This document shows, one piece after another, positions 5,188-60,710 of a stretch of 64,000 nucleotides of DNA (position 1 is its first letter; every line of letters starts with the position of its first letter). Where the stretch lies: positions 1 to 64,000 of the forward strand of contig CP084166.1 of NCBI GenBank assembly GCA_021513695.1. Reading direction: 5' to 3'. The notes below the pieces were generated by a model. It saw only the letters and a list, made by a program, of their open reading frames with translations. It ran no database searches and was not told where the DNA came from. Made by a program: the position numbers and the translations under genes. This DNA comes from Candidatus Heimdallarchaeum aukensis. Lineage in GTDB: Archaea; Asgardarchaeota; Heimdallarchaeia; Heimdallarchaeales; Heimdallarchaeaceae.

Positions 5188-5518
5188 ATTTTTAACTTAT
5201 CATACTTTTTCTTTCTATCCGAGATCTACATGCAAAAATTTTTTCCTTCTAGTTACCATATTGAAGAATTAAAGGCCGATAAGTTTCTTATTACTACCAG
5301 AAAAAACTTATGCTTGTAAAATTACAACCTTAAATATAAAGGAGATTAATTTAAATACAAGATTACATATATTTCACAAGGTTAATCAAGGGGGTGTAAA
5401 TATCCAAGAAAAACTTGATTTTGATAAAATACCTGTAGTTGATAGCATTCAATGGAAAACTTTTGGAATAACTTACAAAGATCAAACAATTATAGGGCTT
5501 GGTTTATATGATCACGGA

Positions 5519-7342: not shown

Positions 7343-7365
7343 TTTAAAAAAGTAAACTATAAGAA

Positions 7366-7950: not shown

Positions 7951-7983
7951 AAAATAAAATGATAAAAACAGTAACTAAATAAT

Positions 7984-8376
7984 TTAATATGAAAGAATTT
8001 TGAATCCTTGTTTTAAAATAGAATCTTGAAGTTCCTTAAAAGCTTTTAATGCTTCATTAAAATCAGTTTTAGATACTTTTGTTTCAACTGACTTAAGTCC
8101 TGCTCCTCTGAACTTCCACAACTCTACACTATACATAAATTTTTCAGGATCTGGAATGTGTAGACCTGACCTATCATACACATAACCCGATCTTTCCCCA
8201 AAAGAAAGCATCAGAATAAACCAATAGTGAGGTCTTGCGTCTTCATCATCTGAAGGCTTTTCTAGAATAATCGTTTCTTCCATCTGTGCACTTTTTGTTT
8301 CTGCAGACAATTCTAATTTCTTTAAGTTACGATAAACTTCTGGAGGTAATTTACGAATTGACATAGTTTTGTTCAC
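7984..8376 (-). CDS. hypothetical protein
   Basis: 130-aa ORF, no motif recognised. Confidence 0.35.
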   Translation of the reverse strand: MNKTMSIRKLPPEVYRNLKKLELSAETKSAQMEETIILEKPSDDEDARPHYWFILMLSFGERSGYVYDRSGLHIPDPEKFMYSVELWKFRGAGLKSVETKVSKTDFNEALKAFKELQDSILKQGFKILSY

Positions 8377-8496
8377 CTAATATAAAACAAAAGATATTAT
8401 GATACATAAATTTATCTTATTAAAAATTTTTTGAATGGAGTTTCAAAATGCATTATCAGAATCAGATTTAAAAAGAATTTATAAATGAATATCTCT

Positions 8497-8512
8497 TTAT
8501 TATAATTATAAG
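8497..8512 (+). promoter_or_regulatory. candidate archaeal TATA box/BRE for polB (leaderless or short-leader transcript)
   Basis: 'ttattataattataag' lies about 20-30 bp upstream of the polB ATG (8531). A second TATA-like 'tttataaat' sits at 8478..8486. Confidence 0.25.
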
Positions 8513-8530
8513 ACAAAAGAGCGTAAGAAT

Positions 8531-23017: not shown

Positions 23018-25990
23018 TTAAATTGGGACTAGAATGTCGTATAAATTGTTATCGCCTATTTTTTCTTTTAGTAGTTTTTTTAGTTTTTGATTAATATCTT
23101 TATAAAAACGTAGTTTCATTTCAGAACTTAATTGCCAAGTGTTAAACTCTTGATTCACAATTAGGATATTTTCTTGCATTCTTTTAATTACATCTTCAAT
23201 CGAAAATACTGATGAGAATAAAATACCCATTTCTGAAATATTAAGATTTATTGTGTTAGGTGTTAATTCTTGTACTTTCTGCAGTAACGAAAGAGTATAT
23301 TTTAGTTCTGGAAAACTAATTAATTGTCCTTCTAGTTCTTGAATTGTAAATTGCCCAATAATATTAGCGTCGACTAATTGCTTAAATGGTTCAGTAAGCT
23401 CGTTGTATTCTCTGAAATACGAAACTGTGTAAAGATTTTCTAATTGTTCTCTTATTTCTTCTTTAATAATTTCTAGTGATTTGTTTGGTTCTTTATTTTT
23501 TAGTGCTAAATTAATAGTTGGAGATAGATGAATAAGAGATTCTTGAGTGATTTCGAATTTATTGTTTTCTGGAAGTTTTACTTTAAGAATATCAAAGGGT
23601 AACTCTGGAAGAGCTATATAGAACTCTTCTTCATTTTCATTTTCATGTATTGAATTATCTAAAAGAAACTCTCTAAAGTAAAGAGAAAATTTGGATAATT
23701 GACGTTTTAAACTTTCACTCCCCACAAAAGCTTTTTTCCTTAAGCCTAATTGTTGTTTTAGAATTTCTAATAGAGATGGGATTTCTATTTTGTTAAAAAC
23801 CACTTTGTTTTTATCTAAGGAAGGAACCCATTTATCTGAAGAGCCATATTCAACAGCTATTCTTCCTGCAGTAGTTGTTTCAGAGAATAAAGCTTCCATT
23901 CCATAACTAAGAATTAAATTAGTTAATGGAATGTAAGTAGCTTCGCTTTTACCAACAACAGCGATTCTAATAAAACCATACCCTGGATAAATAGAGTAAT
24001 TTCTAACTATTTCTCGGAGATCATTGTTTAAAACTATGGATAAAGTCATAGGATGAGTTAGCTCTATGGTATTTCCAACCATAAAAAAGTATCCAATTTC
24101 AAAGAAATCTTGATATTTGTTTAGAGGAGGAAGGAATCTTATTATATTGTCAATCGTTATAATCAATGGTGTTTCTACAAGCTGTAGAAGCTTCTTGTAT
24201 TTAATCTCTACATCTAGTTCTTGAAAACGCTCCTCATTTAATGTTCGTATGAGAAAATCCAAGAATTCACAACTTGTAATAAAATACTTATTGTCTTGAT
24301 AGGTAAAAAGGATACCATTATCAACCTTAGATTCCTCTATTTCATCAATAATTGAGAAAAATTTGTCTATTGAAATGTCTTCTTCTTTTTGTATTTTGTC
24401 TTGTTCATTTAGATTTAAACTAATCAAAAATTTATTGATAAATTCTATATTCTCATTTTCAGTAATAAAATCTTCTAGTGCTTTATAGCTTATTGAATAT
24501 TTTAAGTCTGAAACGCTAAAAGAAAATTTGTCATTCTCTTGACTTAAAAATTTAATAGTTTCTGAAAAGTTTTTTAACATTACTTTTCTATTTAACTCAA
24601 TATAAGCTAACATTTCTTTGAAAAATTGTACTTCATCATCAAAAAAAGCATAGTCAATATCAGTGTTATTTGCTGAATGCTTTGTTAAGTTTTTTATTAT
24701 TGAAATGAAGAAAGCCTTCATTCTAGTATCTTTCATTGCAGCTTGTTCTATAATATCAAGTAATATTTTGAGTTCGGGTGAGTTAGAACTCCTTTTTTCC
24801 ATTTCAGAAAGAATTTCATGAGGAGTCAACTCTTTACTTTTTTTCTCTCCAAAAGTGTGTTGAATTGATGATTTAGGATTATACGAATACCTGAGAAACT
24901 CTGATACTTTTTTTATTTTGAAACCTATATTACGAATATCTTTAGTCCAGTTTCCAGTTTCTAGATCACTAGCAAAAGAAAAAAGGTTCAGGAACTTATC
25001 TTGACTAAGTTCCAAGATCGTTTTGTTTTCTAGTTGTTCTGTATCTAGCGAATGCTGTTTATTTATTTTGTACAAAATATGCGCAAAATAAGCCATCACA
25101 CTTATACCAAAAGCTCTTTTTCTTTTTGAAAAAAGTGATTCTTCAGGATTTTCATTTAAGATTCGCATGAGTTCTCTAGAATAACTATTCAATAATCTAA
25201 TGTTAATAAATTCATTTTTCTTATCTTGTTTTTCAGGGCTTAAAGGAAAAATTGCTGGAACCATAAAGTTGTCAAATATCTGCGATGATTCATTTTCTTC
25301 TTTTATTTGTTTGAATCTATCAAAATTTTCCTTCATCAGCGAAGAAAAACTCCCCATAAAAAGAGACAGAGTTGGAAAAAAAGGTTCTTCTTTCTTCGAG
25401 TTAATGATTGAAAGTAGAACTTCTGTTTCTGGAACAAGAGAGTTAAGCATTTTTAAGATGCTCAATGTGCGTGAATCGATATTTTCTGTTTCTACAGTAA
25501 GTCCAATATGGGACGAAGATTTAAGAAAAGATTCTATTTCACTCATTATACTATTTATGAGTTCACGCAACTTTGATCCGTCTTCTTCTATTGATCTTAA
25601 TGTAGGATTAAACAAACACTTTCTGTACATCACTGCAGCTAAGTTCTGCCAATCTTCAAATTCTTCTATGTTTTTGTCAAGAATTGATAGAAAAGTAAGA
25701 AGAAACTCTTCTCCATAAAAACTGAATCTGGGAATGGTAACCAAATGACTTAAAATTTCATTAGTGTTGAACTTCTTTAATTTTTTATCTTTTTCAGCGA
25801 TTTCTTCTTTTTCTACTTTTTTTTCTCCTTTACTTGTCAAAACTTGTTTAATTATCTCTCTTGCAGGTTCTTGCGCCTTACTTCTACTTAATCCGTATGT
25901 GCGAATAAGATAGGTTACGACCAACCCAAAAGCGTCATCTCCATTTTCAATGATATTCTCCTTAAGTTCATCAGTAATATAGTAACTCAT
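23018..25990 (-). CDS. large hypothetical protein (990 aa), no recognisable catalytic motif
   Basis: Long uninterrupted ORF with coding-like composition. No Walker A, no metal-binding clusters and no TM segments seen. Confidence 0.5.
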   Translation of the reverse strand: MSYYITDELKENIIENGDDAFGLVVTYLIRTYGLSRSKAQEPAREIIKQVLTSKGEKKVEKEEIAEKDKKLKKFNTNEILSHLVTIPRFSFYGEEFLLTFLSILDKNIEEFEDWQNLAAVMYRKCLFNPTLRSIEEDGSKLRELINSIMSEIESFLKSSSHIGLTVETENIDSRTLSILKMLNSLVPETEVLLSIINSKKEEPFFPTLSLFMGSFSSLMKENFDRFKQIKEENESSQIFDNFMVPAIFPLSPEKQDKKNEFINIRLLNSYSRELMRILNENPEESLFSKRKRAFGISVMAYFAHILYKINKQHSLDTEQLENKTILELSQDKFLNLFSFASDLETGNWTKDIRNIGFKIKKVSEFLRYSYNPKSSIQHTFGEKKSKELTPHEILSEMEKRSSNSPELKILLDIIEQAAMKDTRMKAFFISIIKNLTKHSANNTDIDYAFFDDEVQFFKEMLAYIELNRKVMLKNFSETIKFLSQENDKFSFSVSDLKYSISYKALEDFITENENIEFINKFLISLNLNEQDKIQKEEDISIDKFFSIIDEIEESKVDNGILFTYQDNKYFITSCEFLDFLIRTLNEERFQELDVEIKYKKLLQLVETPLIITIDNIIRFLPPLNKYQDFFEIGYFFMVGNTIELTHPMTLSIVLNNDLREIVRNYSIYPGYGFIRIAVVGKSEATYIPLTNLILSYGMEALFSETTTAGRIAVEYGSSDKWVPSLDKNKVVFNKIEIPSLLEILKQQLGLRKKAFVGSESLKRQLSKFSLYFREFLLDNSIHENENEEEFYIALPELPFDILKVKLPENNKFEITQESLIHLSPTINLALKNKEPNKSLEIIKEEIREQLENLYTVSYFREYNELTEPFKQLVDANIIGQFTIQELEGQLISFPELKYTLSLLQKVQELTPNTINLNISEMGILFSSVFSIEDVIKRMQENILIVNQEFNTWQLSSEMKLRFYKDINQKLKKLLKEKIGDNNLYDILVPI

Positions 25991-26342: not shown

Positions 26343-27800
26343 ATGGTGGAAGACGTCGTCAAAACCTTGAAAGTGAGAATAAAGAAGGAGGTATTGACGA
26401 CGAGGAAGAAGGAAAGGTTAAGGAGAATAACGGGGAGAGACACGAGGATAATAGAGAAGTATGTGAGAATAATACATCACAACAGAAGAAAAATATGTGC
26501 TAAAACTAAAAAAGGGAAAATAAGAGTCCATAGAGGAAAACTAGATGAACTGACGCTAACTACTTCAAAAGTTAAAGAAGAAGAGAGAAGAAAGACTGTT
26601 CCTCACGATCTGAAGAAAATGTTCCCTTATTGTTCTCACAATGAATTCCAAGAATGTAGAGATATAGCCGTACAATTATATGAACAAGGGTATAGACCTA
26701 ACAATACTCGTCCTCCAATAAAGAGAGTTAGAAAACAACTAATTAATGCAAAGAGGTTTGTTCTCGTTCATCTGCCAAAAGAGAAGAATAACACTCTCAC
26801 TCGTTGGTGGGTGGGGATAAGAGACTCGTTAGATACGTGGAGAAGAAACACACCTTATCATCAGAAACTATGGTTACCTTTAGAGATGAGCACTTTCCAC
26901 CAGAAAGAGTTAAAGAAAGGAAGAATAAAAAGTTTAGAACTAAGATATAAACGTTCTACACATGAGTGGTGGGTGTATTTCCAACTAAAAGTCATTCCTC
27001 CTCCTTCTTTTTATCTCACAAGTCAAGGAGATAATTCTTCTTCTCTTCCCCCAGCTGTGCTGGGAATAGATCTAGGGATAAGCATTCCTGCTGCAGGAGT
27101 GCTTCTAACCCCTAAAAAGAAATTAACAAGTGAAGAAATAAAATTCTGGTATACCAAACAGTGGAATAAAGTTAATCACCGATATAAACTCAAACTTTCC
27201 CGTCTTCAGAGGAAAGCGGCTTTAAACGACCAGTCGGGTAAAAAACACCAGATTTACCGTTTTCTTGGTCTTCTCCGAAGAAGATATAAAAACGTTAAAC
27301 GAGCCTATATTTACCAATTTGTAAACGACATCGTGCAGACGATAGAGACTTATGCACAAGTGTATGACCTTTTTGTCGTTGTAGGTTATCCTAAACACAT
27401 TCGCGAGGAGAAAGGAAAGAGAAAAAGTACTCATAAGTTTCGTAGAAAACTTCATCAGTGGAACTTTTCTCTTGTTCTTGCCCTTCTTCGTCGAGCATTG
27501 ATACTTCGAGGATTTGAACCTCACCAAATATTAACGATAGAAGAAAGAGGGACATCCTCTCACTGTACTCGTTGCGGGAGGAAAGTTATCCGTCCCGTTA
27601 GAGGTTTAGTCCATTGCTCTTCTTGCAATTACACTTTCCACTCTGACCTCACAGGAGCAATGAATATCGCTCGTAAGTTCCTTGGTGCTCTTTTCCGTCC
27701 TCAAGGAAACACTATCACTGATTACCTCACTGGTCATAAATTCGGTCTCACTCATTTCACTGTTTGCCGAGGGCTCAGCCATTGGTTGCAGCCCCATTAG
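26343..27800 (+). CDS. tnpB: TnpB (IS200/IS605 OrfB, RuvC-like RNA-guided nuclease family)
   Basis: RuvC-I 'VLGIDLGIS'. C-terminal zinc finger 'CTRCGRK...CSSCNYTFHSDLTGAMNIARKF' (CxxC...CxxC followed by the RuvC-III-like HSD...N.A motif). Confidence 0.85.
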   Translation: MVEDVVKTLKVRIKKEVLTTRKKERLRRITGRDTRIIEKYVRIIHHNRRKICAKTKKGKIRVHRGKLDELTLTTSKVKEEERRKTVPHDLKKMFPYCSHNEFQECRDIAVQLYEQGYRPNNTRPPIKRVRKQLINAKRFVLVHLPKEKNNTLTRWWVGIRDSLDTWRRNTPYHQKLWLPLEMSTFHQKELKKGRIKSLELRYKRSTHEWWVYFQLKVIPPPSFYLTSQGDNSSSLPPAVLGIDLGISIPAAGVLLTPKKKLTSEEIKFWYTKQWNKVNHRYKLKLSRLQRKAALNDQSGKKHQIYRFLGLLRRRYKNVKRAYIYQFVNDIVQTIETYAQVYDLFVVVGYPKHIREEKGKRKSTHKFRRKLHQWNFSLVLALLRRALILRGFEPHQILTIEERGTSSHCTRCGRKVIRPVRGLVHCSSCNYTFHSDLTGAMNIARKFLGALFRPQGNTITDYLTGHKFGLTHFTVCRGLSHWLQPH

Positions 27801-31152: not shown

Positions 31153-32172
31153 CTTAAGAAGCATGTCCAAAAATTCTTTTTCACCTACTAAACGGTCCGA
31201 AGGAGTAAAAGGTAGTTGTAACAGAGGAGAGAACTGTACAAGGTAGAGAGGATGGTGGAGGGTAAACGATCAAGGATTGGGGGAAGAGAGAGTTTGAGGA
31301 GACCAAAGACGTGTTCGATACTACTACGATACTCGGGGTGATAATTATGATAAACGATACAGACCAGGGCAGAGACGATGAGCTTGAATTATTGGTTCGA
31401 GGGGAGGAGGAGAGGGATAACGAGCATTACTTTTTGGGGGAATAACAGGAAAAAAAGAATGTTGGCTAAGAAGACCGACGATATTTTCTGTCCAGTAGGC
31501 ACAGTCTCCATAAAATCGCAGGAAAGGTCTCAAGAGTGCAGAAGGAAGTTTCTGCCAGAGCAAACCGAAGACTTTACTATCGTGAGTGTTACTAGCAGAA
31601 TGAGCAAGAGAGACTATAGCTCGAGAGGGTAAACCAACTATAAGGTGTATCTTCCAGAAAAGTTTGGAGGTTTTCTTTAGTCCTCCTCTTGCCCACTTGA
31701 GAAAACGCCAAACAGAAGCTTGACGAATTTTAAACCCTGAACTATCCACCGCCATAGCTTTCAACCCTTTTTTCCTTACTATTTCCCTACCTAAATCTAT
31801 TATCCACCGCTCCAGCAACTCACTTTCTGTCGCTCTCCACACTGCATGAAAAGTAGATTTGGAAGGAATCTTCTTCATCCACCCCTCTTCTATCAAAAAA
31901 GCGCATAAAGACAACTTTTCCTCTAACTTCCTCCAAGCAATTCCTTCTATTCTCGCAATAATTGCTAAAGCCAGTATCACCCACCTTTCTGCTATTCTTT
32001 TTCTCCCTCTCTTACTTTCTCTCGGTTCCTCTTTCACCAGTTTCTTAAGGAAAGGTTCATTAATGCTTATGAATTCTCTTGCTTTGTGGGGGTCTATGAT
32101 CTGAAAGTAAGCCATACTTCCGACATAAACCCCCACATTAATAAAAATTAATTTTTGGGCATGCTTCTTAAG
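31153..32172 (-). mobile_element. IS5/IS4-like insertion sequence (~1.0 kb) with 13-bp terminal inverted repeats
   Basis: 'cttaagaagcatg' (31153..31165) and its reverse complement 'catgcttcttaag' (32160..32172) flank a DDE transposase gene. The region has a purine-rich tract and higher GC than the neighbouring sequence. Confidence 0.55.
31345..32136 (-). CDS. DDE transposase, IS4/IS5 family
   Basis: Three DDE-like segments: 'AVDSSGF', 'NTHDSKVF', 'YGDCAY'. Basic N-terminal part. Confidence 0.65.
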   Translation of the reverse strand: MGVYVGSMAYFQIIDPHKAREFISINEPFLKKLVKEEPRESKRGRKRIAERWVILALAIIARIEGIAWRKLEEKLSLCAFLIEEGWMKKIPSKSTFHAVWRATESELLERWIIDLGREIVRKKGLKAMAVDSSGFKIRQASVWRFLKWARGGLKKTSKLFWKIHLIVGLPSRAIVSLAHSASNTHDSKVFGLLWQKLPSALLRPFLRFYGDCAYWTENIVGLLSQHSFFPVIPPKSNARYPSPPPLEPIIQAHRLCPGLYRLS

Positions 32173-32258: not shown

Positions 32259-35147
32259 ATGGCTATCAAAACCAAAAAAAACTCCACAAAGAAGAATTTA
32301 ATTACTGTTTTTGTAATTTTCTTGGTTTGTTTTAGTTTTATAAATTGTTTAACCTCTAACTTGTTAACTGTAGTAGCTTCAGGAAGCGGAGATTTTCCAC
32401 CTCCAAGTAGTGGAGAATGGACAATATCTCAAGAAACAATAGTTAATTCTGAAGTTATTTATATTAATGATTCAGTTTCAATAGAAAGTGGAGGATCTTT
32501 AGTATTAGAAAATTGTGTAATAGAAATGAATGGTAATGAAGATGACAAAGCTAATTTTATAGTTAATAATAATGGTAATCTTACAATAATTAATTCTAAA
32601 ATAGAAGCTTTTTCTGATTATTCATGGTACATCGAAGCAGAAGAAGGAGCTTCACTTAAAATTACTGACTCAACCCTAATAAACTTCAAAGGAAGCCAAT
32701 ATACATCAGTAATTACACTCTATAACAATTATTCTGAAATTACAAACAATAGTATCTCAAACTTCAAATATAAAGCCATTTTTGCTAGATTTACTAGTCA
32801 TCATAATAATATTACAAAAAACAAAATAAGTGGAGGGCTTGTTGGTTTTGAAGTAGTCGATGGATGGTACAACGAGATAAATGATAATGAGTTTCACTTA
32901 CTATCACAATTTGCGATTGCTATTAATAATGGTAGTTTTTCAAATATTCTTCGAAATAAAATATTTAATGTTTCTTCTATCGCAATCAATTTCCAAAAAT
33001 CAAAGAATGTTTTATGCAATAACAACAATATTTCTACGTCTAAAACTGCAATTGAGTGCTATTCAATCTATAATAGTAGTATCTCTAATAATATGTTCTC
33101 TAATATTCATGATTATTCAATTAGAGTATATACAGGGAATAATGTCACAATATCAAACAATTCAATTGATAATAGCGATTTAGCAAAAGGCATTATTAAT
33201 TCAGCTATTAGCCTGAGTGCGTGTAATAATTTTTCTATTAATGAAAATTCAATAATAAATACCCCAAGAACAGCTCTAGAAATTTTAAGTTCAACAAATT
33301 GTAGAATTTTTAACAATGTTTTTTCCATTAATAATTACTCTATCTTTATCTCTAGTTCTAATTATCTTGAAATTAAAAACAATTTACTATCTTATTCGAA
33401 TGATTATTCTATGTGGTTTATTAAATCAGATTTTTCATTGTTTGAAAACAACACAGTTAATTTTGGTCAATCTTGTGGAATTAGACTAAGTAGCTGTAAC
33501 AATAATTCTATATTAAGGAACATCATATTCAATAATAGTAAATATGGTATCGATATTTCTTCAAGTAATAATAATACGATACTGGAAAATGTTTTTGTTT
33601 TAAACAATAATGGTTCTATTCAAGCTTATGATAATGGATTAAATAATAGCTGGTATAGTAATTTAGAATCTGTTGGTAATTTTTGGAGTGATAATAATGG
33701 ATCATCTTTCTATTTAATAAATGGTGAATCAGGTTCTATGGATATTTTTGCGAATTATTCTGATTACGATAAAGATTTTATTCCTGATTATTATGAACTT
33801 GAAGTTGGTTTAGATATAACAATAAATGATGCTAATGACGACTTAGATGGGGATGGTTTGTCAAACTTCGAAGAATTTACTCTGGGTACTTTTCCTAATG
33901 ATCCTGATAGCGATGATGATGGTTTAATTGATTCAGTAGAAGTAGACTTGAAAACTGATCCTATGTCTAATGATACAGACAATGACAACCTTATTGATGG
34001 GTTAGAAATTCAATATGGATGTGACCCCTTTTCAAATGATACAGACATGGATGGACTAGATGACTGGTCAGAGATATTCTACTACTTCACTGACCCTTTA
34101 GATTATGACACTGATGGTGATGGGTTATCTGACTCTGATGAAGTTTATGCATATAATACAGACCCATTGGACGCTGACACTGATGATGATGGCTTAAATG
34201 ATGTAACTGAAGTACTAGGTTATGGTACTGATCCCAATGATGCAGATACAGATGGAGATGGATTAACAGATTACGAAGAAGTGATTGAATATTTTACTGA
34301 TCCTACGGATGTTGATACTGATGGTGATGGTTTAACAGATTATGAAGAGGTAAAATATTATGGAACAAATCCTAGGAAAGCTGACACTGATGGTGATGGA
34401 ATTTCTGACAATGATGAATTAATTCAAGGAAAAGATCCATTAGTCAATGAGAAACAAAGAAATGTAAGGATAATAATTATTGTATTTTCTGCTTTAGGTT
34501 CTGGTATACTGTTTATAGGATTAACTGTGCTGTTGATACTATTCCTGATAGAAAAGAACAAAAATAAAGAACAAGCATTGTTATCCCTTTTCAAGAAAAA
34601 AATTAGAGAACTAGAAAAGAAAATTAATATTATTGAAACAACAAAAATTGAAGAACTTATGTCTAAGACAGAAGAAAGAGCGAAAATTGATACTTTTTTC
34701 AATGAATTCCTTGAGGTTTTAGTGGACTTCGCAACATATTTTCTGGAAAATGAGGAATTAATTGAGAATAAAAAATGGTTACAAGCCAAAAAGAAGCTAA
34801 ATGAAGAATTAGATAAAGTGAGAGATTGGATTAATAAAAATCTACGTGCTCTAAAGGAATATGATATTTATGACAAACTAGTAAACCAGATAGATGGATT
34901 AGAAAATAAAGAAGAAATTAAGATTAGCAAGTTAGAAGCTTATAAGGAGATTGAAATTGCAAAAGGTATTTTGAGAGAATTCAAAAAAGTAGTAGAGAAA
35001 ACTTCTCCTTTTATCAACAAATTTTCCTATTCTACTTTAACTAAATATTGGGAGATTACAACTGAACTTATATTTGCTAATATGACACAGCTAGAAAAAA
35101 TTGAGGAAAAAATAAAAGATCTACTGGAAAGAGAGAAAACTCTATAA
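32259..35147 (+). CDS. large type-I membrane surface protein: signal peptide, parallel beta-helix (PbH1/NosD-like) repeats, thrombospondin-type-3-like Ca-binding repeats, TM helix, ~210-aa cytoplasmic coiled-coil tail
   Basis: N-terminal signal '[14 protein letters not shown]'. Repeated 'N-x-I-x-N-N' beta-helix rungs. About 10 '[12 protein letters not shown]'-type repeats. TM '[27 protein letters not shown]'. C-terminal K/E-rich heptads. Confidence 0.7.
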
Positions 35148-35497: not shown

Positions 35498-38400
35498 TTA
35501 TTTTCTAGATCTATTTGTTTTTATTGCAAGAATGGTCAAGCCTAAGAGTCCTAGAACGAAATAGAGGAAACTGAATGGATTTTTGGTTGTAGTCTCTTCT
35601 GGATGACTGTTTGAGTCAATAGGGTTAAAACCATTAGACGCTTCGTATCCATCAGTCCAACCATCTCCATCAGTGTCATTATTATGAGGATCAGTATTCC
35701 AATAGAATTCATCTCTATTAGTTAAACCATCTTCATCAGGATCTTCATTAGCATCATCTACTAAAGGATCTAAGTTGTTGTCTACTTCCCAACCATCAGG
35801 CATACCATCATCGTCGGTATCACTGTCAGTAGGGTCGGTGTTATTTGTATATTCTCCTAGATTTGATAAACCATCACTGTCTTTATCATCAGACCCATCA
35901 TCTGTTAATGGGTTTAATTCATATTTTAGTTCCCATCCATCGTCCATTCCATCTCCATCAGTATCTGCGTCAGTGCTTTGAGTGCCTAAAACTACATCTT
36001 CAAGGATATCATCTAAACCGTCTCCATCTATATCAGTTCCACTTATTGGATAAAGATCGACTGAAGAAGCCGTTCCTTGAATATTGGTATAAGTTCCTGT
36101 TGTTCCATTGTAGTCTGACCAATAGTTACCTACTTTTATTTCATCATTATACCATAGATTATTTGACCCATCATCTATAGCTAAAGTAATTTGGTCAAAG
36201 AATAAATAAGAAGCTGAAACGAAATAATTTTGATAGATTAGAGCATTAGAAATCGTAGAAGATAGTGAGATTAAGCAATAAATTTGCCTAATTTCTCCAT
36301 TAATATCAATTATGTCGAATATTTTATTGTACGTAATAATTGCTCCATCAATATCTCCATCTAAACGAATCCCTGCATTAGATACCGTGTTTTCTATGAT
36401 ATTTATAACATTTCTAGTAATCTCGAGATTTTCCCATTGTCCACGAATGTATATTCCTATAGTTCCTCCAGAATTTATTTCATTGTTGTCTATAACAAAA
36501 TTATTTCCTCCATCATTGGCGAAATAAATACCACTGTAAGATGATCCTAGATTTGTTGTTATTTGGTTATATGAGATAGTTATATTGTTGAAGATATTAC
36601 CACTAGCAACATAAATTCCTTTATTACAGTTGCTTATTTGGCTATTAGTTATTATTACATTGTCTACTTTTCTAGCATAATCAGCATAAAGTTCAATTCC
36701 TGAATCTACATTGGAGATGATGGTGTTATTTATTATTAAGCCGTCTGCGGCATAGACATCAATAGCGATTTCTTCATAATTTGATATTATTACATTTTTT
36801 ATTGTAAGATTTTCACTATCAAAAATATATATTGCTTTTGTTGATGTACCATCATGTAAATTTAGGTCTTCAAGAAAAACATTTTTTGAAGTATCAATAC
36901 TTATACTTCCATGTTCAATCTCTGCATTTACAAAAGTAATATTGGTAACTTCGTAAAAGTTTGAGGTACCTGAAAGGGTGTTACTTGTTATTTCGAAATT
37001 ACTAGAATAAGAAATGTAAAACGAGGTATTGGATGACAATATAGCATTATTTGTTATTTCTGTGAACTTTTCTGGCAGATTTGCAATAGTAAAAGCTCTA
37101 TCTACATTTTCAATATAATTGTTGGTAATGTATGTATTTCCTTCCAAAGCGTTACCATAAGAGGAAGTTATTGTGAAAACTTTTTCTGAATCTGAAATAT
37201 CGTTATTATCAAAAGTGACATTACCCACGTAAATTAGATCAAAAGCGGTATTATTAGCGTCTACTATCTCATTATTCACTATTGTAATATTATCATTTAT
37301 TACATAATTTGTGTTATATTTTTTATTTATATCAAGACCGTAAGATACACCTTCTATTATGTTATCTTTAAAAGTCAGAGTAATATTTGCAGTAGTAGAA
37401 TAATCTAAACACATTCCTTTATTTGCTTCATTAATAGTATTTCCTGTCACATTTAATGATTTCGTGTCATATACTATAATTCCATTATAGGCGTTGATAA
37501 ACTCGTTAGAAATTATAATTATTTCTTCATCAGCATATTGATCAATAGGATTCATAATATAAATCGCATTATCGTAAATATTTTCGAAACCGTTACCGGA
37601 AACAGTAATACTTTTTGAATCTTTAATTAAAATTCCTAAATCTGTATTTGATATAGAAAGTGATTTAATGTTAATATTAGTACAATCAATTAGAAATATC
37701 TGACCATAAATGTTAGTGTCAATATTTTTCGTATCGTTGCTAACAAAATAACCTACTTCTTTATTATTTACTTTGTTTCCCTTTACTATTATTGTATTAG
37801 CTTTTTCTTTAAGTGGTGCTAAAAACATCCCATCATTTACTAAAGTATTATTAACAATCTCAATAGTATCTGTTGTTTCCTTAGCAAGATAGATTCCATA
37901 TCCTTTATTTGACTCTATTGAATTATTTGCTATTATTTCATCATTTGATCCACCATTAATTAACAATCCAATATCATCGTTATTATTTATTGAATTATTT
38001 GCAATAGTAATAAAGTCTCCAGTAATATCTATACCTTTATTGTTGAATGAACAGTTATTTCCAGTTATAATTACGTTGTTTGAACCAGTTGAATAAATCC
38101 CTGCGTTACTATTAGATGAACAGGTATTATTTGCAATTATTGCGTTATTAACACCGTAAATGTTTATTCCATTATTACTTCCTGTTATGGTATTATTTAT
38201 TATCTTCTGACTATTAGTCATATAAACATTAATTCCATCTTCATTTCCACTTACAGTGTTTGATTCAATAGTTGCGATTCCATCAGCCACAGATACAATA
38301 TATATTCCCTTTCTAGATGCTTCAATAGAACAATTGACTATCTTAAAGTAAGCTGTTACGCTTAAACTATGAATATAAATTCCATAGTCTGATGATGTCT

Positions 38401-38614
38401 GTATTTTTAAGTTACTGATTATGTAAGGATCGTCTACTGTACCTGCTCCATCAACAACACCATTAGCTGAAGTAAAATCACTATCTGAAGCAATTACTAT
38501 TGGGTCATGTGTTGTGTATATTTTCAGTTTAGACTGTACGTTATTTAAACTTACAATCAATCCACTGCTAATTACAAGCATTATTAAAAACAATGATTTA
38601 TAGTTTTTCATCAA
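35498..38614 (-). CDS. large secreted surface protein: signal peptide, long parallel beta-helix region, TSP3-like Ca-binding repeats, C-terminal TM anchor with basic tail (sortase-type sorting signal candidate)
   Basis: Signal 'LFLIMLVISSGLIVSL'. Many 'NNTI.GN..GI' rungs. Acidic repeats '[14 protein letters not shown]', 'DSDTDDDGMPDGWE'. C-terminal 'NPFSFLYFVLGLLGLTILAIKTNRSRK'. Confidence 0.7.
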   Translation of the reverse strand: MMKNYKSLFLIMLVISSGLIVSLNNVQSKLKIYTTHDPIVIASDSDFTSANGVVDGAGTVDDPYIISNLKIQTSSDYGIYIHSLSVTAYFKIVNCSIEASRKGIYIVSVADGIATIESNTVSGNEDGINVYMTNSQKIINNTITGSNNGINIYGVNNAIIANNTCSSNSNAGIYSTGSNNVIITGNNCSFNNKGIDITGDFITIANNSINNNDDIGLLINGGSNDEIIANNSIESNKGYGIYLAKETTDTIEIVNNTLVNDGMFLAPLKEKANTIIVKGNKVNNKEVGYFVSNDTKNIDTNIYGQIFLIDCTNINIKSLSISNTDLGILIKDSKSITVSGNGFENIYDNAIYIMNPIDQYADEEIIIISNEFINAYNGIIVYDTKSLNVTGNTINEANKGMCLDYSTTANITLTFKDNIIEGVSYGLDINKKYNTNYVINDNITIVNNEIVDANNTAFDLIYVGNVTFDNNDISDSEKVFTITSSYGNALEGNTYITNNYIENVDRAFTIANLPEKFTEITNNAILSSNTSFYISYSSNFEITSNTLSGTSNFYEVTNITFVNAEIEHGSISIDTSKNVFLEDLNLHDGTSTKAIYIFDSENLTIKNVIISNYEEIAIDVYAADGLIINNTIISNVDSGIELYADYARKVDNVIITNSQISNCNKGIYVASGNIFNNITISYNQITTNLGSSYSGIYFANDGGNNFVIDNNEINSGGTIGIYIRGQWENLEITRNVINIIENTVSNAGIRLDGDIDGAIITYNKIFDIIDINGEIRQIYCLISLSSTISNALIYQNYFVSASYLFFDQITLAIDDGSNNLWYNDEIKVGNYWSDYNGTTGTYTNIQGTASSVDLYPISGTDIDGDGLDDILEDVVLGTQSTDADTDGDGMDDGWELKYELNPLTDDGSDDKDSDGLSNLGEYTNNTDPTDSDTDDDGMPDGWEVDNNLDPLVDDANEDPDEDGLTNRDEFYWNTDPHNNDTDGDGWTDGYEASNGFNPIDSNSHPEETTTKNPFSFLYFVLGLLGLTILAIKTNRSRK

Positions 38615-44073: not shown

Positions 44074-44958
44074 TTAAAACCAACTTATTACATTGTATAT
44101 TTGTTCTTCTACATCTTTTACTTTATCACTTATTTCTGATACATCATTTATTGAATCGAAGAATTTGTTCAAAATGTTTCTTATTTTTTCTATACCATGT
44201 GCAATATCTTGATATTCAAAAGGATAAGCTAGAGCAACAATACAATAATCCTTACCTTCTAATCTCTTATCTAATTGATTTTTGTCTTTAACAATATATA
44301 GAAGACTTGTAGCATAATAGTCTCTCATTTTAGGGATTCTAACAGGCCCCGAGATTATGGATGAACTTTCAAGTTTATCTATCTCTCCCATTCCAAACAA
44401 AGTGTAAAGCATAACGCCCAAGGATAAAATGACTGTTTCTTTTATGTCTTCATATTCTTCTGGAATTCTGTTTACATATATAGGTTCAGTTCCAGAGGTT
44501 CCAAAACGATAAAAAGCTAAGAATATTTTGTTTTTATCATAACGAGATTTCTTTTTTTTGATGTTTTCAATAATTTCTGGTATTTTACTGAAAAATCTTC
44601 CTCTTTTCACAATATAATCTTGAGCGCCCATTTTCATAGCTTTGACAGCTACTTCTTCAGATCCTTGTCCTGTAATTATAAGGACAGGAATATCAGTTAT
44701 TTTTCTGATCTCTTCCAAAATGTCCAAACCTGTAATGTCTCCTAAAAGATAGTCTAGCAATATTATATCGAAGTCATATTTATATTCTTGAAGAATGTTT
44801 AATGCCTCTTCTTTTGTCTGAGTTATATGTACTTCTACATCATGAAAAGCCTTAATTATATTGATTTTGATAAGAAAGGCTATGTCACTGTCATCCTCCA
44901 CAAGTAGTACACGTAGATCATTAGACATTGTTTGTTCCTCGAAGTATAAGAAATACAC
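44074..44958 (-). CDS. response-regulator receiver (REC) domain protein with ~170-aa C-terminal domain of unknown function
   Basis: 'LRVLLVEDDSDIAFL...IILLDYLLGDITGLD...DYIVK' gives the D-D...D...K receiver signature. No HTH output seen. Confidence 0.75.
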   Translation of the reverse strand: MYFLYFEEQTMSNDLRVLLVEDDSDIAFLIKINIIKAFHDVEVHITQTKEEALNILQEYKYDFDIILLDYLLGDITGLDILEEIRKITDIPVLIITGQGSEEVAVKAMKMGAQDYIVKRGRFFSKIPEIIENIKKKKSRYDKNKIFLAFYRFGTSGTEPIYVNRIPEEYEDIKETVILSLGVMLYTLFGMGEIDKLESSSIISGPVRIPKMRDYYATSLLYIVKDKNQLDKRLEGKDYCIVALAYPFEYQDIAHGIEKIRNILNKFFDSINDVSEISDKVKDVEEQIYNVISWF

Positions 44959-45095
44959 TTTCTTTCCTTTATAATAAAATATAAATTATAAGTTTTAACA
45001 TTTGTGGAATTTCTCATGTATTATGATTCTTTTTTTTGTAGTATGCTTCTAATCTTATGCAAAAGTGAAAGTTTTAATACTTTTTTTATTAATGA

Positions 45096-45168
45096 AGGCT
45101 GATGGGTTGAGGATTGTCATGCACTACGTTGATATGTGATAGAAGCTTAGGGATGAAACCCATCTTTC
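45096..45168. ncRNA. candidate small structured RNA (GC-enriched hairpin closed by an 8-bp stem)
   Basis: 'gatgggtt' (45101..45108) pairs with 'aacccatc' (45158..45165). Local GC is well above the intergenic background. The strand is unknown. Confidence 0.2.
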
Positions 45169-45261
45169 TATTTTAATTAATAAAGAAACTGATTTTTTCT
45201 TGTTTTAAATTTTTATTTAAATTTAGCTAACTACTTTATTTAAATAAAAGTTATTATAGGC

Positions 45262-46251
45262 TTAATGTTCAATAAATTCTTTCTCGCTTATAACTTTACA
45301 TGTTAATGTTTTAGCAGCAAAAGGTATGAAACTTTTTTCTAGCTCCTTTTTAACCTTTTCAAAAATCAAATAGCGATTTTCTTCACTTGTTAGATCCAAA
45401 GTAATGATTTCAGTTAAATTTTCTATTAATGTAAGCAAAGGACCTTTTTCTATTAGTACATACTCTGTTGTTACTAATAAAGCAATGTTATGATAACTAA
45501 TAAACAGTAGTTTATATTCCTCAAAGTTAATTTCTTCCATTGAACTAAGTTGTTTTTTGTTTGTTGAATTTAGCCACTTATTCTCATAAGCACTAATTAT
45601 GTTCTTAACTTTTTCTCTGGTTCTTGTATTATCGTGTATATGAAGATTAACTCCGTCTTTTTTAATGAAAATATCTACCGATAAAATGTTTGGCATTAAT
45701 CCTGTTTTTTTACTAACCAACTTGCTTATTAACCAATTCATCGCATCGCTTATGTATTCGCCTGTTTTGACTGAAATGAAAAAGAATCGAAAACTCATCT
45801 GACTTTCAATTGAAATTAATTTGTTAAGTTCAAATCCTTTAACAATTTCTTCAATAACTCTTTCTTTTTCTGTAATTAAGTCCATCTTATTACCTAGAAA
45901 AAGCACTGGTATATCTTTGTTTTTTATCCATTCTAAAATAGTATAGAACCATTCTTTACTTTCTGGTAAACTTTCTAAATTTGAAGCGTCAAAAATGAAA
46001 ATTAAAGCAGAGGAAAGATTAATGTAATTTTTCCAAATGTGCTTTCTGAATGCTTGGTGTCCCCCCATATCCCAAATTTGAAGGGGAAAACCTTGGTACT
46101 CGGTAAATTCTACATCAACACCTAAAGTCGGAGGAGAAGAAACAAAGGTTCCCGATAGTAACCTTTGGGTAAAGCTAGATTTTCCGGCTTGTGGAAGGCC
46201 AGTTATAGCAATAGAGAATCTTGTCATTTTTGAGTTCACTTCAATTAGCAC
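45262..46251 (-). CDS. Arf-family-like small GTPase with ~140-aa C-terminal extension (roadblock/longin-like domain candidate)
   Basis: G1 'GLPQAGKSS', G3 'WDMGGHQ', G4 'GNKMDL', G5 'SVKTGEYISDAMNWL'. All resemble Arf/Arl/Sar proteins. Confidence 0.8.
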   Translation of the reverse strand: MLIEVNSKMTRFSIAITGLPQAGKSSFTQRLLSGTFVSSPPTLGVDVEFTEYQGFPLQIWDMGGHQAFRKHIWKNYINLSSALIFIFDASNLESLPESKEWFYTILEWIKNKDIPVLFLGNKMDLITEKERVIEEIVKGFELNKLISIESQMSFRFFFISVKTGEYISDAMNWLISKLVSKKTGLMPNILSVDIFIKKDGVNLHIHDNTRTREKVKNIISAYENKWLNSTNKKQLSSMEEINFEEYKLLFISYHNIALLVTTEYVLIEKGPLLTLIENLTEIITLDLTSEENRYLIFEKVKKELEKSFIPFAAKTLTCKVISEKEFIEH

Positions 46252-58202: not shown

Positions 58203-60710
58203 GTGAAAAAAGTTAATTTAGCGAGACAATGGGTGTTGTCAACAATTTTGACTGTTTCTTTTTCACTCTTTATAATAATGGGTTCAAACACTTTAATTTT
58301 AGAGACACGAATTCAAGGATTGACTCAATCTACTTTTGATAAATATCTCGAATCAAAAATTGAAAGCATGGAGCTCTCCAGTTATCAATTTGCATCTTCA
58401 ATAGATTCACTCTTTGAAGGATATATAGTCTCTCTGAATAACACAGCAAAGTATATTTCTCATCAACTTTACTCTAATGAATCACTGGAAATTTATGAAA
58501 AAAACTATTTAGAATTCACAAATAGTGATGAAACCCTATATCTAAATGGTTTAATAAATGCTAGTGTAAGGCGAGAAGAAAAAATTGGTTACTTAGACTT
58601 CTATAATGATGGAACAAACATTATGGATACTCCAGGATTAGTTATCACTGGAAAAATTAAAAATACAATCTCAATACAAGGAATTATAACAGTTCAAACA
58701 AATGCTTCATTATCTGGAGAACTTGCATTAAATTCTTCTTTGCTTCTTTTTTACTCTGAACCTAATTCTAGTTTGTTCTCTGTTGATATTTCAGATTTAT
58801 TTCAAAGTTATTTCAACAACTCATTTAATGTTACTCTTCTTGGTTCATGGAATGAAGATCCAAATTTGATTCCTCAAGTAATAAAGTCTAGGATTAATTT
58901 TACAGAGTTTAGTTTCTTTAAAGAGTATTATGTTTTAAATTCGCCTAAAATGTCAAATATTACCTTAACAAAAGAATTAGAAATCTCAAAAATTGATGGC
59001 TGTATTGAGGGTTATATCTTAGGGCAGTATAAAGGTATATTAAAAGGAAACATTAATGGAGTTTTAAGTGGTTCAATTGATTTGCGTCCTAAATATATTT
59101 ATCAACATTTTCCTTCTCTACGTCAATCTTTTTTGCAATGGGTTTATTATGCAACACCAAATTATTTTATCATTTATCCATATTATCCTAACTATTTTGA
59201 CCCTGAGCATTTATTAGCTTTAACTATCGAATTTAATTGGTTAAAAAGACCTTGGTATAATGAAATATTGGCTCAAGAAATAAATGAAACAAGAAAGGGC
59301 GTAAAAGCACATTTTTCTAGTTTAGGAGTAGACTATGTGTTAAAAAATTTATTTATTAGTCTAGGGCAAGCAATTTATAATTCCACAGATTACCAAGGCC
59401 TTTTAGTACAAGATTTCAATTTAGATTTTTTGAAAAATGCTTTAGAACTTAGGATCACTCAAGAAGATTTTAATTGGCTTGTAGACAATTCAGGAAATAT
59501 TCTTTATTCTCCTGAATACTTTGAAAAAGAGAATGTATTCATTTTAACTCCCTATCCTACTTCTAATGTTTTTAAATTAAACAACAGTGCTCTCTCTAAT
59601 TCATTTCTAGCTGCTAAAGCAGGTGAATTGTCTCATATTGAGTTAACCTTCAACGAAACATCATACTTAGTTTTTTATAGAGAACTTGCTTCGCCAGATT
59701 GGTGGATGATTCACTTTTCACCCGTGGATTTAATTCTTGAAGAAATACAACCATTAATTAATGAAATGGAGAAAAACTTCAGAAATGTAGAAGTTATGCT
59801 CTTAGTTACATTGTTTGTTATACTATCTATTGTTGGGAGTATTGAAATATTCTTGACTAGAAATTATACAAAAAACTTAACTAAACTTAGAAACGCTATA
59901 GATCGGGTTTCTAGTGGAGATTATAGCGTTTCTTTTGACTTTAATAGAGAAAAATTAAATGAAATTACTGAAGTATTCTTCCTATTTGAAGAAATGGCTA
60001 TCAAATTAAACGATTCAATTGAAAAAGAAAAACAATCGACAATTTTAGCAAACCTTGCTCTTGACTTGTTTATTCATGATATAGGCAATTATTTGCATGC
60101 TCTAAATGGTTATTTGGAATTAGTTTCATTAAGGTCGGAAACTGAAGAAATGAAATCTCTTCTAGAGAAAATACGAAGAGTATTAGAAAAGACTGAACGG
60201 TTAAGGGATAGAATAATTGTTCTCCGTTCTTTAAGCAGTAAAAAAATGACTTATGCAAAAGTGAATCTAAAACAACAAATAGTAAAAGCACTAGAAAACG
60301 TAAAAATCTTTTATCCACAATTCATGATAGATTATGTTCAGCTTTTTGAAGATGATTTTTCAATTTATGTTTGTAATTACTTCACTGATTTACTAGAAAA
60401 CATATTTGAATTCTTTGTAAAACAATCTCAAACTAAAAAAGTTTCACTTCAGATAGATGCAATAGAAAAAGAAAAACATCTAGAATTAATAATTGAAGGA
60501 AAAGGAAAAGGTTTAAGCTATAGCAGAAAAATTCAGATACAAGAAGAGTTAGCTACAGGTAGAAGACTTTCTGATTTTAATTTAATTACAGCATATATGA
60601 TTGTTAAAAGATCTGGCGGAAGTATGGTTATTGAGGATATGGTTGAAGGAAAACCAGAAGAAGGTTCTAAGCTAATTCTTAAATTACCTAAAAATACACA
60701 GAAAATATGA
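58203..60710 (+). CDS. sensor histidine kinase with large extracytoplasmic domain
   Basis: TM1 'VLSTILTVSFSLFIIM'. About 500-aa extracellular part. TM2 'MLLVTLFVILSIVGSIEIFL'. H-box 'HDIGNYL'. C-terminal ATPase G-boxes 'IEGKGKGLS' and 'GGSMVIEDM'. Confidence 0.75.
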   Translation: MKKVNLARQWVLSTILTVSFSLFIIMGSNTLILETRIQGLTQSTFDKYLESKIESMELSSYQFASSIDSLFEGYIVSLNNTAKYISHQLYSNESLEIYEKNYLEFTNSDETLYLNGLINASVRREEKIGYLDFYNDGTNIMDTPGLVITGKIKNTISIQGIITVQTNASLSGELALNSSLLLFYSEPNSSLFSVDISDLFQSYFNNSFNVTLLGSWNEDPNLIPQVIKSRINFTEFSFFKEYYVLNSPKMSNITLTKELEISKIDGCIEGYILGQYKGILKGNINGVLSGSIDLRPKYIYQHFPSLRQSFLQWVYYATPNYFIIYPYYPNYFDPEHLLALTIEFNWLKRPWYNEILAQEINETRKGVKAHFSSLGVDYVLKNLFISLGQAIYNSTDYQGLLVQDFNLDFLKNALELRITQEDFNWLVDNSGNILYSPEYFEKENVFILTPYPTSNVFKLNNSALSNSFLAAKAGELSHIELTFNETSYLVFYRELASPDWWMIHFSPVDLILEEIQPLINEMEKNFRNVEVMLLVTLFVILSIVGSIEIFLTRNYTKNLTKLRNAIDRVSSGDYSVSFDFNREKLNEITEVFFLFEEMAIKLNDSIEKEKQSTILANLALDLFIHDIGNYLHALNGYLELVSLRSETEEMKSLLEKIRRVLEKTERLRDRIIVLRSLSSKKMTYAKVNLKQQIVKALENVKIFYPQFMIDYVQLFEDDFSIYVCNYFTDLLENIFEFFVKQSQTKKVSLQIDAIEKEKHLELIIEGKGKGLSYSRKIQIQEELATGRRLSDFNLITAYMIVKRSGGSMVIEDMVEGKPEEGSKLILKLPKNTQKI

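Follow-up and report, generated by a model that had tools for sequence, protein, structure and literature searches.

Can a two-component receiver govern a small GTPase of eukaryotic type in an archaeon? The question is raised by two neighboring genes in a 64-kb stretch of DNA from Candidatus Heimdallarchaeum aukensis (contig CP084166.1, positions 1 to 64,000), referred to here as the window. The first gene encodes an Arf-like small GTPase with an additional C-terminal domain, and the second encodes a protein termed REC-X, in which a receiver (REC) domain is followed by an output domain, X. An original prediction, made from the sequence, had proposed that a two-component input feeds a small-GTPase module at this locus. 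Using domain profiles, structure models, and gene neighborhoods, the architectures of the two proteins, an Arf-longin GTPase and a REC-longin protein, can be described with high confidence. The explanation favored here, to which we give a probability of about 0.5, is that switch and regulator are encoded by separate genes and that a phosphorylation-controlled longin would act on a longin-fused GTPase.

The Arf-Like GTPase

The G motifs quoted in the original prediction (GLPQAGKSS, WDMGGHQ, NKMDL, and SVKTGEYISDAMNWL) were all located in the GTPase, whose G domain features G1 GLPQAGKS, a switch-I T42, G3 WDMGGH, G4 NKMD, and G5 SVK. GTPase residues are counted throughout from the GTG that begins the open reading frame (ORF), and receiver and X residues from the ATG. 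The Pfam family Arf (PF00025) matches residues 7-177 with an E-value of 2.2e-28 and 99.3 bits against a cut-off of 22.3. When a profile of the GTPase family was compared with PDB sequences, GerdArfR1 and HodArfR1 ranked first (3e-27 to 1.5e-24), followed by Arl1, Arl8, Arl3, and Arf1, and no Rag or MglA chain appeared among the best 60 matches. Likewise, no MglA chain was present among the 50 best Foldseek matches of the GTPase model, and an MglA-like GTPase was rejected because the PDB sequence ranking favors ArfR, Arl, and Arf. As judged by similarity ranking, the G domain is Arf-like and nearest to Asgard ArfR and Arl/Arf proteins. The Pfam family Gtr1_RagA (PF04670) gives no match to the window GTPase at E<=0.01, and precomputed Pfam matches list it for five of 27 GTPase homologues. 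Six accessions of the GTPase family were not found in two supplementary files of Vargová et al.

The best G-domain matches, HodArfR1 (8ouk/8oul), GerdArfR1 (8oum/8oun), Arl1, Arl8, and Sar1, share the WDxGG interswitch signature with the window GTPase, which differs from them in having only ~25-29% identity, an additional domain of 144 aa, and no amphipathic helix. In the AlphaFold2 (AF2) model, β1 begins at ORF residue 12, only three residues after the conserved start Met, and the GTPase therefore lacks the N-terminal amphipathic helix and hence an Arf-type membrane switch. A canonical membrane-anchored Arf was rejected because, in the AF2 model, β1 is too close to the start Met for such a helix. 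The G3 position of the catalytic Gln is occupied by His in the window GTPase, and the family alignment has His in most homologues and Gln in three. Sar1 and SRβ also have His at the G3 position where Arf has the catalytic Gln, so that the window GTPase and Sar1 are alike in the His after GG.

The C-terminal domain had been predicted to span roughly 140 aa and possibly to have a roadblock or longin fold. It spans 144 aa (residues 186-329) and gives no Pfam match, even at E<=10; with hhalign it is unrelated to X and matches nothing in LAMTOR2, and a profile search with this domain alone returned one fragment only. The AF2 model of the GTPase has a predicted local distance difference test (pLDDT) score of 83.5 and a predicted template modeling score (pTM) of 0.60, with ten-residue pLDDT blocks of the C-terminal domain mostly at 70-91. 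Its C-terminal elements are β189-198, β201-207, α210-227, β237-243, β246-253, β256-263, α269-282, and α290-306, with one extra strand, and with good confidence the predicted arrangement is the longin order ββ-α-βββ-α-α. A longin is distinguished from a roadblock by the absence of an N-terminal helix and the presence of an additional C-terminal helix (Tran et al., 2024, PMC10933270).

Foldseek queries were whole-protein models, and matches to the G domain and to REC dominate the result lists. For the GTPase model searched against the PDB, ArfR, Arl, and Arf structures match the G domain only. Gtr1, RagA, and the Lokiarchaeal RagA-like protein LokiRagO (8yl2) align over 300-331 columns that include both domains, with a root-mean-square deviation (rmsd) of ~12 Å; the relative orientation of the two domains therefore differs. 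As modeled, the GTPase is a G domain joined to a predicted longin-type platform in a Rag/Gtr-like layout. Like RagA-D and Gtr1/2, it has a C-terminal α/β platform and relatives that are encoded as paralogue pairs, and it differs from them in its Arf-like G domain without PF04670 and in its predicted longin rather than roadblock order; its dimer is a putative one. Conserved residues of the C-terminal domain are D193, F195, and L316 together with a polar set (H204, H206-D207-N208, R212, E239-E240, and C318) that may constitute an interface or a metal site.

The GTPase family comprises 27 clusters at 90% identity, which are 45-99% identical to the window protein and mostly full length (313-346 aa; two are fragments). 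Every named homologue is from Heimdallarchaeota (25 full-length sequences aligned). The window GTPase is a member of orthogroup A among the longin-fused Arf-like GTPases of Heimdall. Arf-like proteins of 300-325 aa that carry a C-terminal domain fall into at least four paralogous groups, of which A is one, and the C-terminal domain of orthogroup A is undetectable by sequence in the paralogues.

The Receiver Protein and Domain X

The second protein had been described as a receiver encoded on the same strand about 300 bp downstream, with an uncharacterized C-terminal domain and no DNA-binding output. Both genes are indeed on the minus strand, and the receiver gene follows the GTPase gene after 303 bp if read from its GTG or 333 bp from its ATG. 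Pfam Response_reg matches ORF residues 17-119 (E=2.2e-19). An alignment of 30 homologues shows no variation at D12, D13, D59, and T86 and hardly any at K108, and by these residues the phospho-acceptor site is intact. The family consists of ~50 full-length clusters with 59-96% identity and a mean column identity of 79%, which is alike in both domains, and all named homologues are from Heimdall, apart from one metagenome-assembled genome (MAG) labeled Thorarchaeota. No DNA-binding domain was detected in REC-X, and the 157 aa of X have no Pfam match at E<=10, a result that extends to 37 diverse X sequences and includes longin, roadblock, GAF, PAS, folliculin, and NPR2.

The AF2 model of REC-X has a pLDDT of 89.6 and a pTM of 0.87, with ten-residue blocks of X at 70-95. 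Its elements are β136-143, β146-152, α157-179, β190-197, β204-214, β226-236, α237-258, and α263-281, so that X too is predicted with good confidence to have the longin order ββ-α-βββ-α-α. The suggestion that structure prediction be run on both C-terminal domains thus yielded a longin-type fold for each, and the structural guess of the original prediction was a good one. Foldseek matches of the REC-X model are the receiver domains of PmrA, PhoB, and VicR. A search of a viral fold library with the same model revealed nothing on X, and the X profile gave chance matches only against PDB sequences.

Searched against 1.84 billion representative proteins at E<=0.001, the X-domain profile matched 82 proteins, 80 of them remote homologues in which X is placed at the C terminus or internally, after modules of TPR (26), PAS (21), REC (11), or GAF (7). 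Fifteen of 20 sampled X clusters are named, and all of these are Asgard (Heimdall, Hodarchaeales, Thor, and Odin). Among 62 X homologues the first residue of β2 is Gly in 60 and is followed by Pro in 43, a D-x-R motif is present in the β4-β5 loop of 61, and an aromatic residue, six residues on, opens β5 in 60; further hallmarks are GQG at the end of α1 and GPLP in β3. The corresponding residues of the window protein are G146-T147, D220-x-R222, and Y228. The same spacing of six between Arg and aromatic residue is, we presume, also found in FLCN (R164 to Y170) and SMCR8 (R147 to F153).

These positions recall the longins that are GTPase-activating proteins (GAPs). In FLCN, SMCR8, NPRL2, and C9orf72 a GP motif is located where the β1-β2 loop ends or β2 begins, beside the arginine finger, and this combination has also been reported in Heimdall longins (PMC12290439, 2025). 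In topology, as modeled, and in motif position X appears to match the description of GAP longins, to which its homology is putative. R222 is likened to FLCN R164 by spacing and by one non-significant alignment. With approximate query sequences, hhalign alignments of X with FLCN and SMCR8 fall in the expected register (X R95 = FLCN R164; X β1-GP-β2 = SMCR8 FILISEFSEQVGPQPLL) at scores no better than shuffled sequences, and they are not counted as evidence; those with NPRL2 and C9orf72 are off-register.

Comparison With Known Systems

Both proteins are further members of architectures already published for Asgard archaea, and the rarity and novelty that the original prediction attached to them were overstated. 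Liu et al. (2021, bioRxiv 10.1101/2020.10.19.343400) reported Rag-like GTPases with a fused longin from Asgard genomes, as well as NPRL2-like longins joined to two-component domains. GTPases that are annotated as Arf but are Rag-like, with a longin or roadblock domain attached, are known from the Lokiarchaeon MK-D1 (Tran et al., 2024, PMC10933270), and Arf-like proteins with extra domains such as longin from Asgard archaea (Zhu et al., 2025, PMC11914678). The window GTPase resembles these proteins in its Arf-annotated G domain, its Rag-like layout, its restriction to Asgard archaea, the presence of several paralogues per genome, and the occurrence of some gene pairs. Its orthogroup differs in being found in Heimdallarchaeia only, in having His for the catalytic Gln, and in a C-terminal domain that cannot be detected in paralogues.

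Domain X is similarly close to the Asgard NPRL2-like longin fusions and GAP longins in its predicted longin order, G-P at β2 in most homologues, a conserved Arg in the β4-β5 loop, fusion to REC, PAS, or GAF, and restriction to Asgard archaea, although it is likened to the NPRL2-like asCOGs of Liu et al. by description only. The eukaryotic GAP longins, for their part, are heterodimers in large complexes and are not under phosphorelay control. A receiver with a comparable output is found in Thaumarchaeota, in which receivers are fused to roadblock-like outputs (REC-NitrOD3; Galperin et al., 2018, PMC5847659). REC-NitrOD3 is likewise an archaeal REC with a Roadblock/LC7-related output that is not DNA-binding, but it belongs to another phylum and another output family and has no reported GTPase link. 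In the MglA-MglB-RomR circuit of Myxococcus (PMC9481161, PMC13408092) a small GTPase is under the control of roadblock-fold proteins and the receiver protein RomR is part of the circuit; that system is bacterial, the window G domain is not MglA-like, and the output of RomR is not a longin.

Gene Neighborhoods

Neighborhoods were compared in 25 Heimdall genome loci with the REC-X family, and further cases were obtained from contig look-ups (L-numbers denote compared loci or contigs, some of them written as pairs such as L001/2, L071/2, and L073/4). REC-X is part of a block, NifS/IscU ... OsmC, REC-X, GT4, AsnC, EamA, that is syntenic across at least 25 genomes. Among the 25 genome loci, the GTPase adjoins REC-X only in Ca. 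Heimdallarchaeum endolithica. The two genes are adjacent in the window, in L004, in L001/2 (GTPase 61% identical), and in L073/4. The synteny that the original prediction wished to see checked is kept in these loci, and in L071/2 with a gene between, and it does not extend to the other loci. In a neighbor-joining tree of REC-X, the loci with a directly adjacent GTPase form one clade, in which a zinc-finger (ZnF) gene has been lost, and L071/2, which has both genes, branches nearby. Since adjacency is confined to these loci, the exact pair is a trait of one Heimdallarchaeaceae sublineage and not of the family. Of the outcomes that had been named as contrary to the prediction (no longin fold, MglA-like clustering, no synteny), none was observed.

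The ZnF gene is the most conserved neighbor of REC-X, and no trace of it is present in the 64-kb window. It encodes a protein of ~330 aa that combines a zinc ribbon with a C2H2-like zinc finger and ends in an acidic tail (L016 8413-9408; L071 9203-10162). This protein is uncharacterized, has possible ribbon-helix-helix-like N-terminal repeats, and gives sub-threshold Pfam matches only. No common partner gene was found next to X genes, and the proteins encoded downstream of X in L085 and L086 are unrelated by BLAST to each other and to the ZnF protein. At L085 6415-8208 (Thor MAG) and L086 6362-8236 (Heimdall MAG), a PAS-X gene has a gene for an unrelated protein of ~600 aa close behind (11 bp and ~90 bp, respectively). 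The ~600-aa protein of L085, with its N-terminal zinc ribbon, coiled coil, and acidic region, loosely recalls the ZnF neighbor of REC-X.

Orthologues of the window GTPase are also found in GTPase clusters away from REC-X, in L003, L077, L079/80, L081, and L089/90. In L089/90, L080, and L077 a group-B gene (G3 IDxGGQ) directly precedes the group-A gene (WDMGGH), head to tail, and the spacing of 4 bp or less (Table 1) suggests translational coupling and a Rag-like heterodimer, in which the catalytic residues of the two subunits would be non-equivalent. L089/90 holds an operon-like array on one strand (L089 1-10951) that encodes a hybrid PAS-HisKA-HATPase-REC kinase, REC proteins of 132 and 145 aa, a small PAS protein, a 48-aa ORF, GTPase B, and GTPase A, with gaps of 3-4 bp. 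As a two-component-to-GTPase cluster it is more complete than that of the window. In L080, a 988-aa multi-PAS/DUF835 sensor is followed by a receiver gene 17 bp before the first of three GTPase genes. This receiver (5492-5959) seemingly has Asn at the position of the phospho-acceptor Asp (…IAIINNNIPD…, judged by eye) and may be a pseudo-receiver. A 931-aa TPR protein precedes the GTPase pair on the same strand in L077, the GTPase cluster of L003 that holds the group-A orthologue also encodes a PAS-X protein, which matches the X profile with E=3e-22, and two Ras/Roc GTPases are encoded after a TPR-X protein in L084. In ~590 kb of Asgard DNA (L085-L090 not counted), a second REC-X in L082 was the only additional X gene detected outside these clusters, and small GTPases were not detected there. 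By a rough estimate, chance is unlikely to account for the finding of group-A GTPases beside REC, PAS, or X genes time and again in several unrelated arrangements.

Proposed Coupling and Alternative Explanations

In other Heimdall genomes the paralogues occur as tandem coupled pairs and triples, and the GTPase is therefore most likely a dimeric switch joined through its longin domains; it would be soluble and Rag-like. REC-X would be an orphan response regulator with a longin output of the NPRL2/FLCN/SMCR8 kind. Phosphorylation of the receiver would gate whether this longin pairs with, and acts on, a longin-fused small GTPase, for which the adjoining GTPase would be the prime candidate client. 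REC-X might act as a GAP that supplies R222 to a G domain with His in place of Gln, or it might act as a platform. The parts of this proposal differ in strength. For the general notion that X-type proteins act on small GTPases, the odds are evenly balanced. The identification of the window GTPase as the client of REC-X is tentative, and the most specific version, in which REC-X is a phosphorylation-gated FLCN/NPRL2-type GAP or guanine nucleotide exchange factor (GEF) platform on the adjacent GTPase and a phosphorelay of bacterial style operates a longin-GTPase switch of eukaryotic style, is unlikely.

A number of observations weigh against the coupling. The two genes are 333 bp apart, and this spacer with a promoter-like block of its own speaks against a need for joint transcription; they are probably transcribed separately. 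In L073/4 the pair is divergently oriented with a second GTPase gene alongside, and a divergent promoter region replaces the spacer. In L071/2 the order is OsmC, GTPase, ZnF, REC-X, GT4, with a whole gene in place of the spacer and with GTPase, ZnF, and REC-X on one strand. At 23 of the 25 genome loci the ZnF gene is located 55-60 bp upstream of REC-X on the same strand, and no small GTPase is found within up to 10 kb. REC-X is more conserved and widespread (60-68% identity, ~50 clusters) than the GTPase (45-53%, 27 clusters). Neither HisKA nor HATPase was detected among 31 window ORFs scanned, smaller ORFs being outside the scan. As for X itself, fusion to a GTPase is found in none of 80 X-domain proteins, only L084 among eight other X-domain loci that were examined has adjoining GTPases, and six other non-orthologous X loci have no GTPase nearby. 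The REC-X orthogroup of the window has G-T where most X domains, and the GAP longins, have G-P. Finally, X has no significant profile similarity to the human proteins: with approximate query sequences, hhalign scores against FLCN, SMCR8, NPRL2, C9orf72, Sec22b, sigma-adaptin, and DYNLRB1 were 8-17, a range that shuffled controls covered as well.

The main rival is that the two genes are neighbors by history. The GTPase gene would have moved into the syntenic block in one sublineage and its product would work independently with its paralogues, whereas REC-X would serve the ZnF/acidic-tail protein, for example by controlling a DNA-binding factor through protein contact, or another target. This explanation is possible, though we do not hold it to be probable. 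It is favored by the conservation of the block across so many genomes, by the position of the ZnF gene directly upstream of REC-X (in L071/2 as well as in the 23 genome loci), by the GTPase orthologues that are located elsewhere, and by the differences in orientation and spacing of the pair among loci. Moreover, Asgard GTPase genes are mostly found outside longin/roadblock operons (Tran et al., 2024, PMC10933270). On the other hand, members of this GTPase orthogroup have REC, PAS, or X genes as neighbors in several settings that are unrelated to one another, the pair has stayed adjacent while the GTPases diverged to 45-48% identity and despite loss of the ZnF gene and an inversion, and the eukaryotic proteins that are most like X in motifs act on Rag and Arf GTPases. 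Because the genes for GTPase, ZnF, and REC-X follow one another on a single strand in L071/2, functional coupling and historical adjacency are not mutually exclusive. For the two-component input to the GTPase that the original prediction had proposed, the outcome is thus divided. The local pair is limited to one sublineage, with the flipped orientation in L073/4 and the usual ZnF neighbor speaking against it, yet orthologues are encoded behind hybrid kinase, REC, and PAS genes or beside PAS-X, and the input is therefore plausible but unproven.

An improbable alternative is that X is a small-molecule or signal sensor of the GAF/PAS class, and REC-X a receiver fused to a sensor or dimerization module. 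The only full-length Foldseek alignments of REC-X are with the REC-GAF dual-sensor histidine kinases 6oap, 6oaq, and 6ob8 (333-341 columns), and they place X no more closely than in the broad class of 2+3-strand α/β sandwiches. Longin, roadblock, GAF, and PAS domains have this core of 2 + 3 antiparallel strands in common, and no longin is significantly similar to X in sequence. However, the rmsd of the REC-GAF alignments is 15-18 Å, their E-values do not surpass those of REC-only matches, and the long helix between β2 and β3, the tight β3-β4-β5 hairpins, and the two C-terminal helices follow the longin order and not that of GAF or PAS. In addition, X mostly comes after PAS or GAF in the same protein, which is an output position, its G-P and D-x-R motifs are at the positions of the GAP-longin motifs, and such fusions were classed as NPRL2-like longins by Liu et al. 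(2021, bioRxiv 10.1101/2020.10.19.343400).

It is equally doubtful that the C-terminal domain of the GTPase is a same-chain regulator (an auto-GAP, an effector mimic, or similar to a guanine nucleotide dissociation inhibitor) acting through H204, H206, D207, R212, E239, E240, and C318 rather than a dimerization platform: the polar cluster is strongly conserved and includes an Arg that is invariant where β2 meets α1, and the window has no gene for a paralogous partner GTPase within its 64 kb, but inter-domain confidence in the AF2 model is low (pTM 0.60), the orthologue is translationally coupled to a paralogue of the same layout in three other genomes, as for heterodimers, and the solved Rag/Gtr and LokiRagO structures oligomerize through this domain (PDB entry titles).

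The Locus and Other Features of the Window

The coordinates of the two genes, their domains, and the compared gene pairs are collected in Table 1. The ORF listing begins both genes at a GTG. For the GTPase, the ATG at 46227 is taken as the start because of the 25-homologue alignment and the 321-aa annotation in Ca. H. endolithica, and the receiver probably starts at the ATG at 44928 because all 30 aligned homologues begin there. The GC content of the locus is ~30%, and in a Pfam scan the neighbors of the pair are OsmC, a GT4 glycosyltransferase, AsnC, an EamA-AsnC fusion, and NifS/IscU. The closest genomic match is the complete genome of Ca. H. endolithica PR6 (receiver 96%, GTPase 85%, and neighboring genes 83-100% identical), which, together with the Heimdall origin of the named homologues, bears out the Asgard host that had been proposed.

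Table 1. Coordinates of the GTPase and receiver genes, their domains and spacer, and of the GTPase gene pairs in related genomes.
Locus	Feature	Positions	Strand	Remarks
Window	GTPase ORF	45262..46251	-	329 aa from GTG at 46251 (ORF listing)
Window	GTPase gene	45262..46227	-	321 aa from ATG at 46227 (MTRFSIAITG...)
Window	Arf-type G domain	45697..46227	-	ORF residues 9-185; Pfam Arf, PDB sequence profile, AF2
Window	Predicted longin-type C-terminal domain of GTPase	45265..45696	-	ORF residues 186-329, 144 aa; AF2, Foldseek
Window	Spacer between genes	44929..45261	-	333 bp; AT-rich promoter-like block and GAGG motif before receiver ATG
Window	Conserved 64-nt spacer element	45101..45164	-	8-bp inverted repeat at ends
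Window	Receiver ORF	44074..44958	-	from GTG at 44958 (ORF listing)
Window	Response-regulator gene (REC-X)	44074..44928	-	284 aa from ATG at 44928
Window	Receiver (REC) domain	44554..44928	-	residues 1-125; Pfam Response_reg, invariant columns, Foldseek
Window	Output domain X	44077..44547	-	residues 128-284, 157 aa; AF2, remote homologues, motif counts
L089	B-A GTPase pair	9094-10951		4 bp between genes
L080	B-A GTPase pair	7080-8960		0 bp between genes
L077	B-A GTPase pair	4096-5993		-4 bp between genes

A scan of the spacer for bacterial promoters and terminators was uninformative. The 64-nt element of the spacer also occurs in L004 (9767-9830) and L001/2 (6950-7013), and the remaining spacer does not align with that of L001. 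The element ends in GATGGGTT...AACCCATC, with one compensatory change in L001 (T-A to C-G; GATGGGTC/GACCCATC). The window has one copy of it and the remaining loci have none, its folding z-scores are weak, and Rfam gives a sub-threshold C/D-box match on the plus strand (22.6 bits vs 44). The element may be a small RNA, a structure of an untranslated region (UTR) or terminator, or a protein-binding palindrome.

Elsewhere in the window, a TnpB/Cas12f-like ORF (26343-27800; Cas12f1-like_TNB, E=1e-8) is encoded near a DDE transposase ORF (31345-32136). The region of 26-32 kb, which contains the TnpB/Cas12f-like ORF, is the only stretch with raised GC (0.35-0.37) and is probably a mobile-element insertion. 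Two convergent ORFs of ~1000 aa (32259-35147, plus strand; 35498-38614, minus strand) with right-handed β-helix/NosD and bacterial TSP3 repeats probably encode surface proteins; the latter is 92% identical in H. endolithica and is not found in the other loci. ORFs of 990 aa (23018-25990, minus strand), 835 aa (58203-60710, plus strand), and 552 aa (3529-5187, plus strand) have no Pfam match at E<=1e-5.

Significance

Longin GAPs (GATOR1, folliculin, and C9orf72-SMCR8) and Rag/Arf GTPases govern nutrient signaling and organelle identity in eukaryotes. To our knowledge, their archaeal precursors are known as catalogue entries only, and pairings of Asgard longins with GTPases have not been established. 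Genome layout seldom helps to pair the two (Tran et al., 2024, PMC10933270). What the analysis adds is a concrete candidate regulator-GTPase pair and the recurring grouping of sensor, receiver, and GTPase genes around orthogroup A. This locus and the kinase-REC-GTPase arrays of related genomes provide concrete candidate pairs, whose proteins are small and soluble and in which phosphorylation of the receiver can be imitated in vitro. Were the coupling false, the window would add two more members to described Asgard families. If it is true, it would reveal how a GTPase switch of eukaryotic type came to be connected to a prokaryotic phosphorelay, and should the GAP reading also prove true, REC-X and its GTPase may represent a forerunner of GATOR1/folliculin-Rag signaling in the form of a compact two-gene pair that can be reconstituted.

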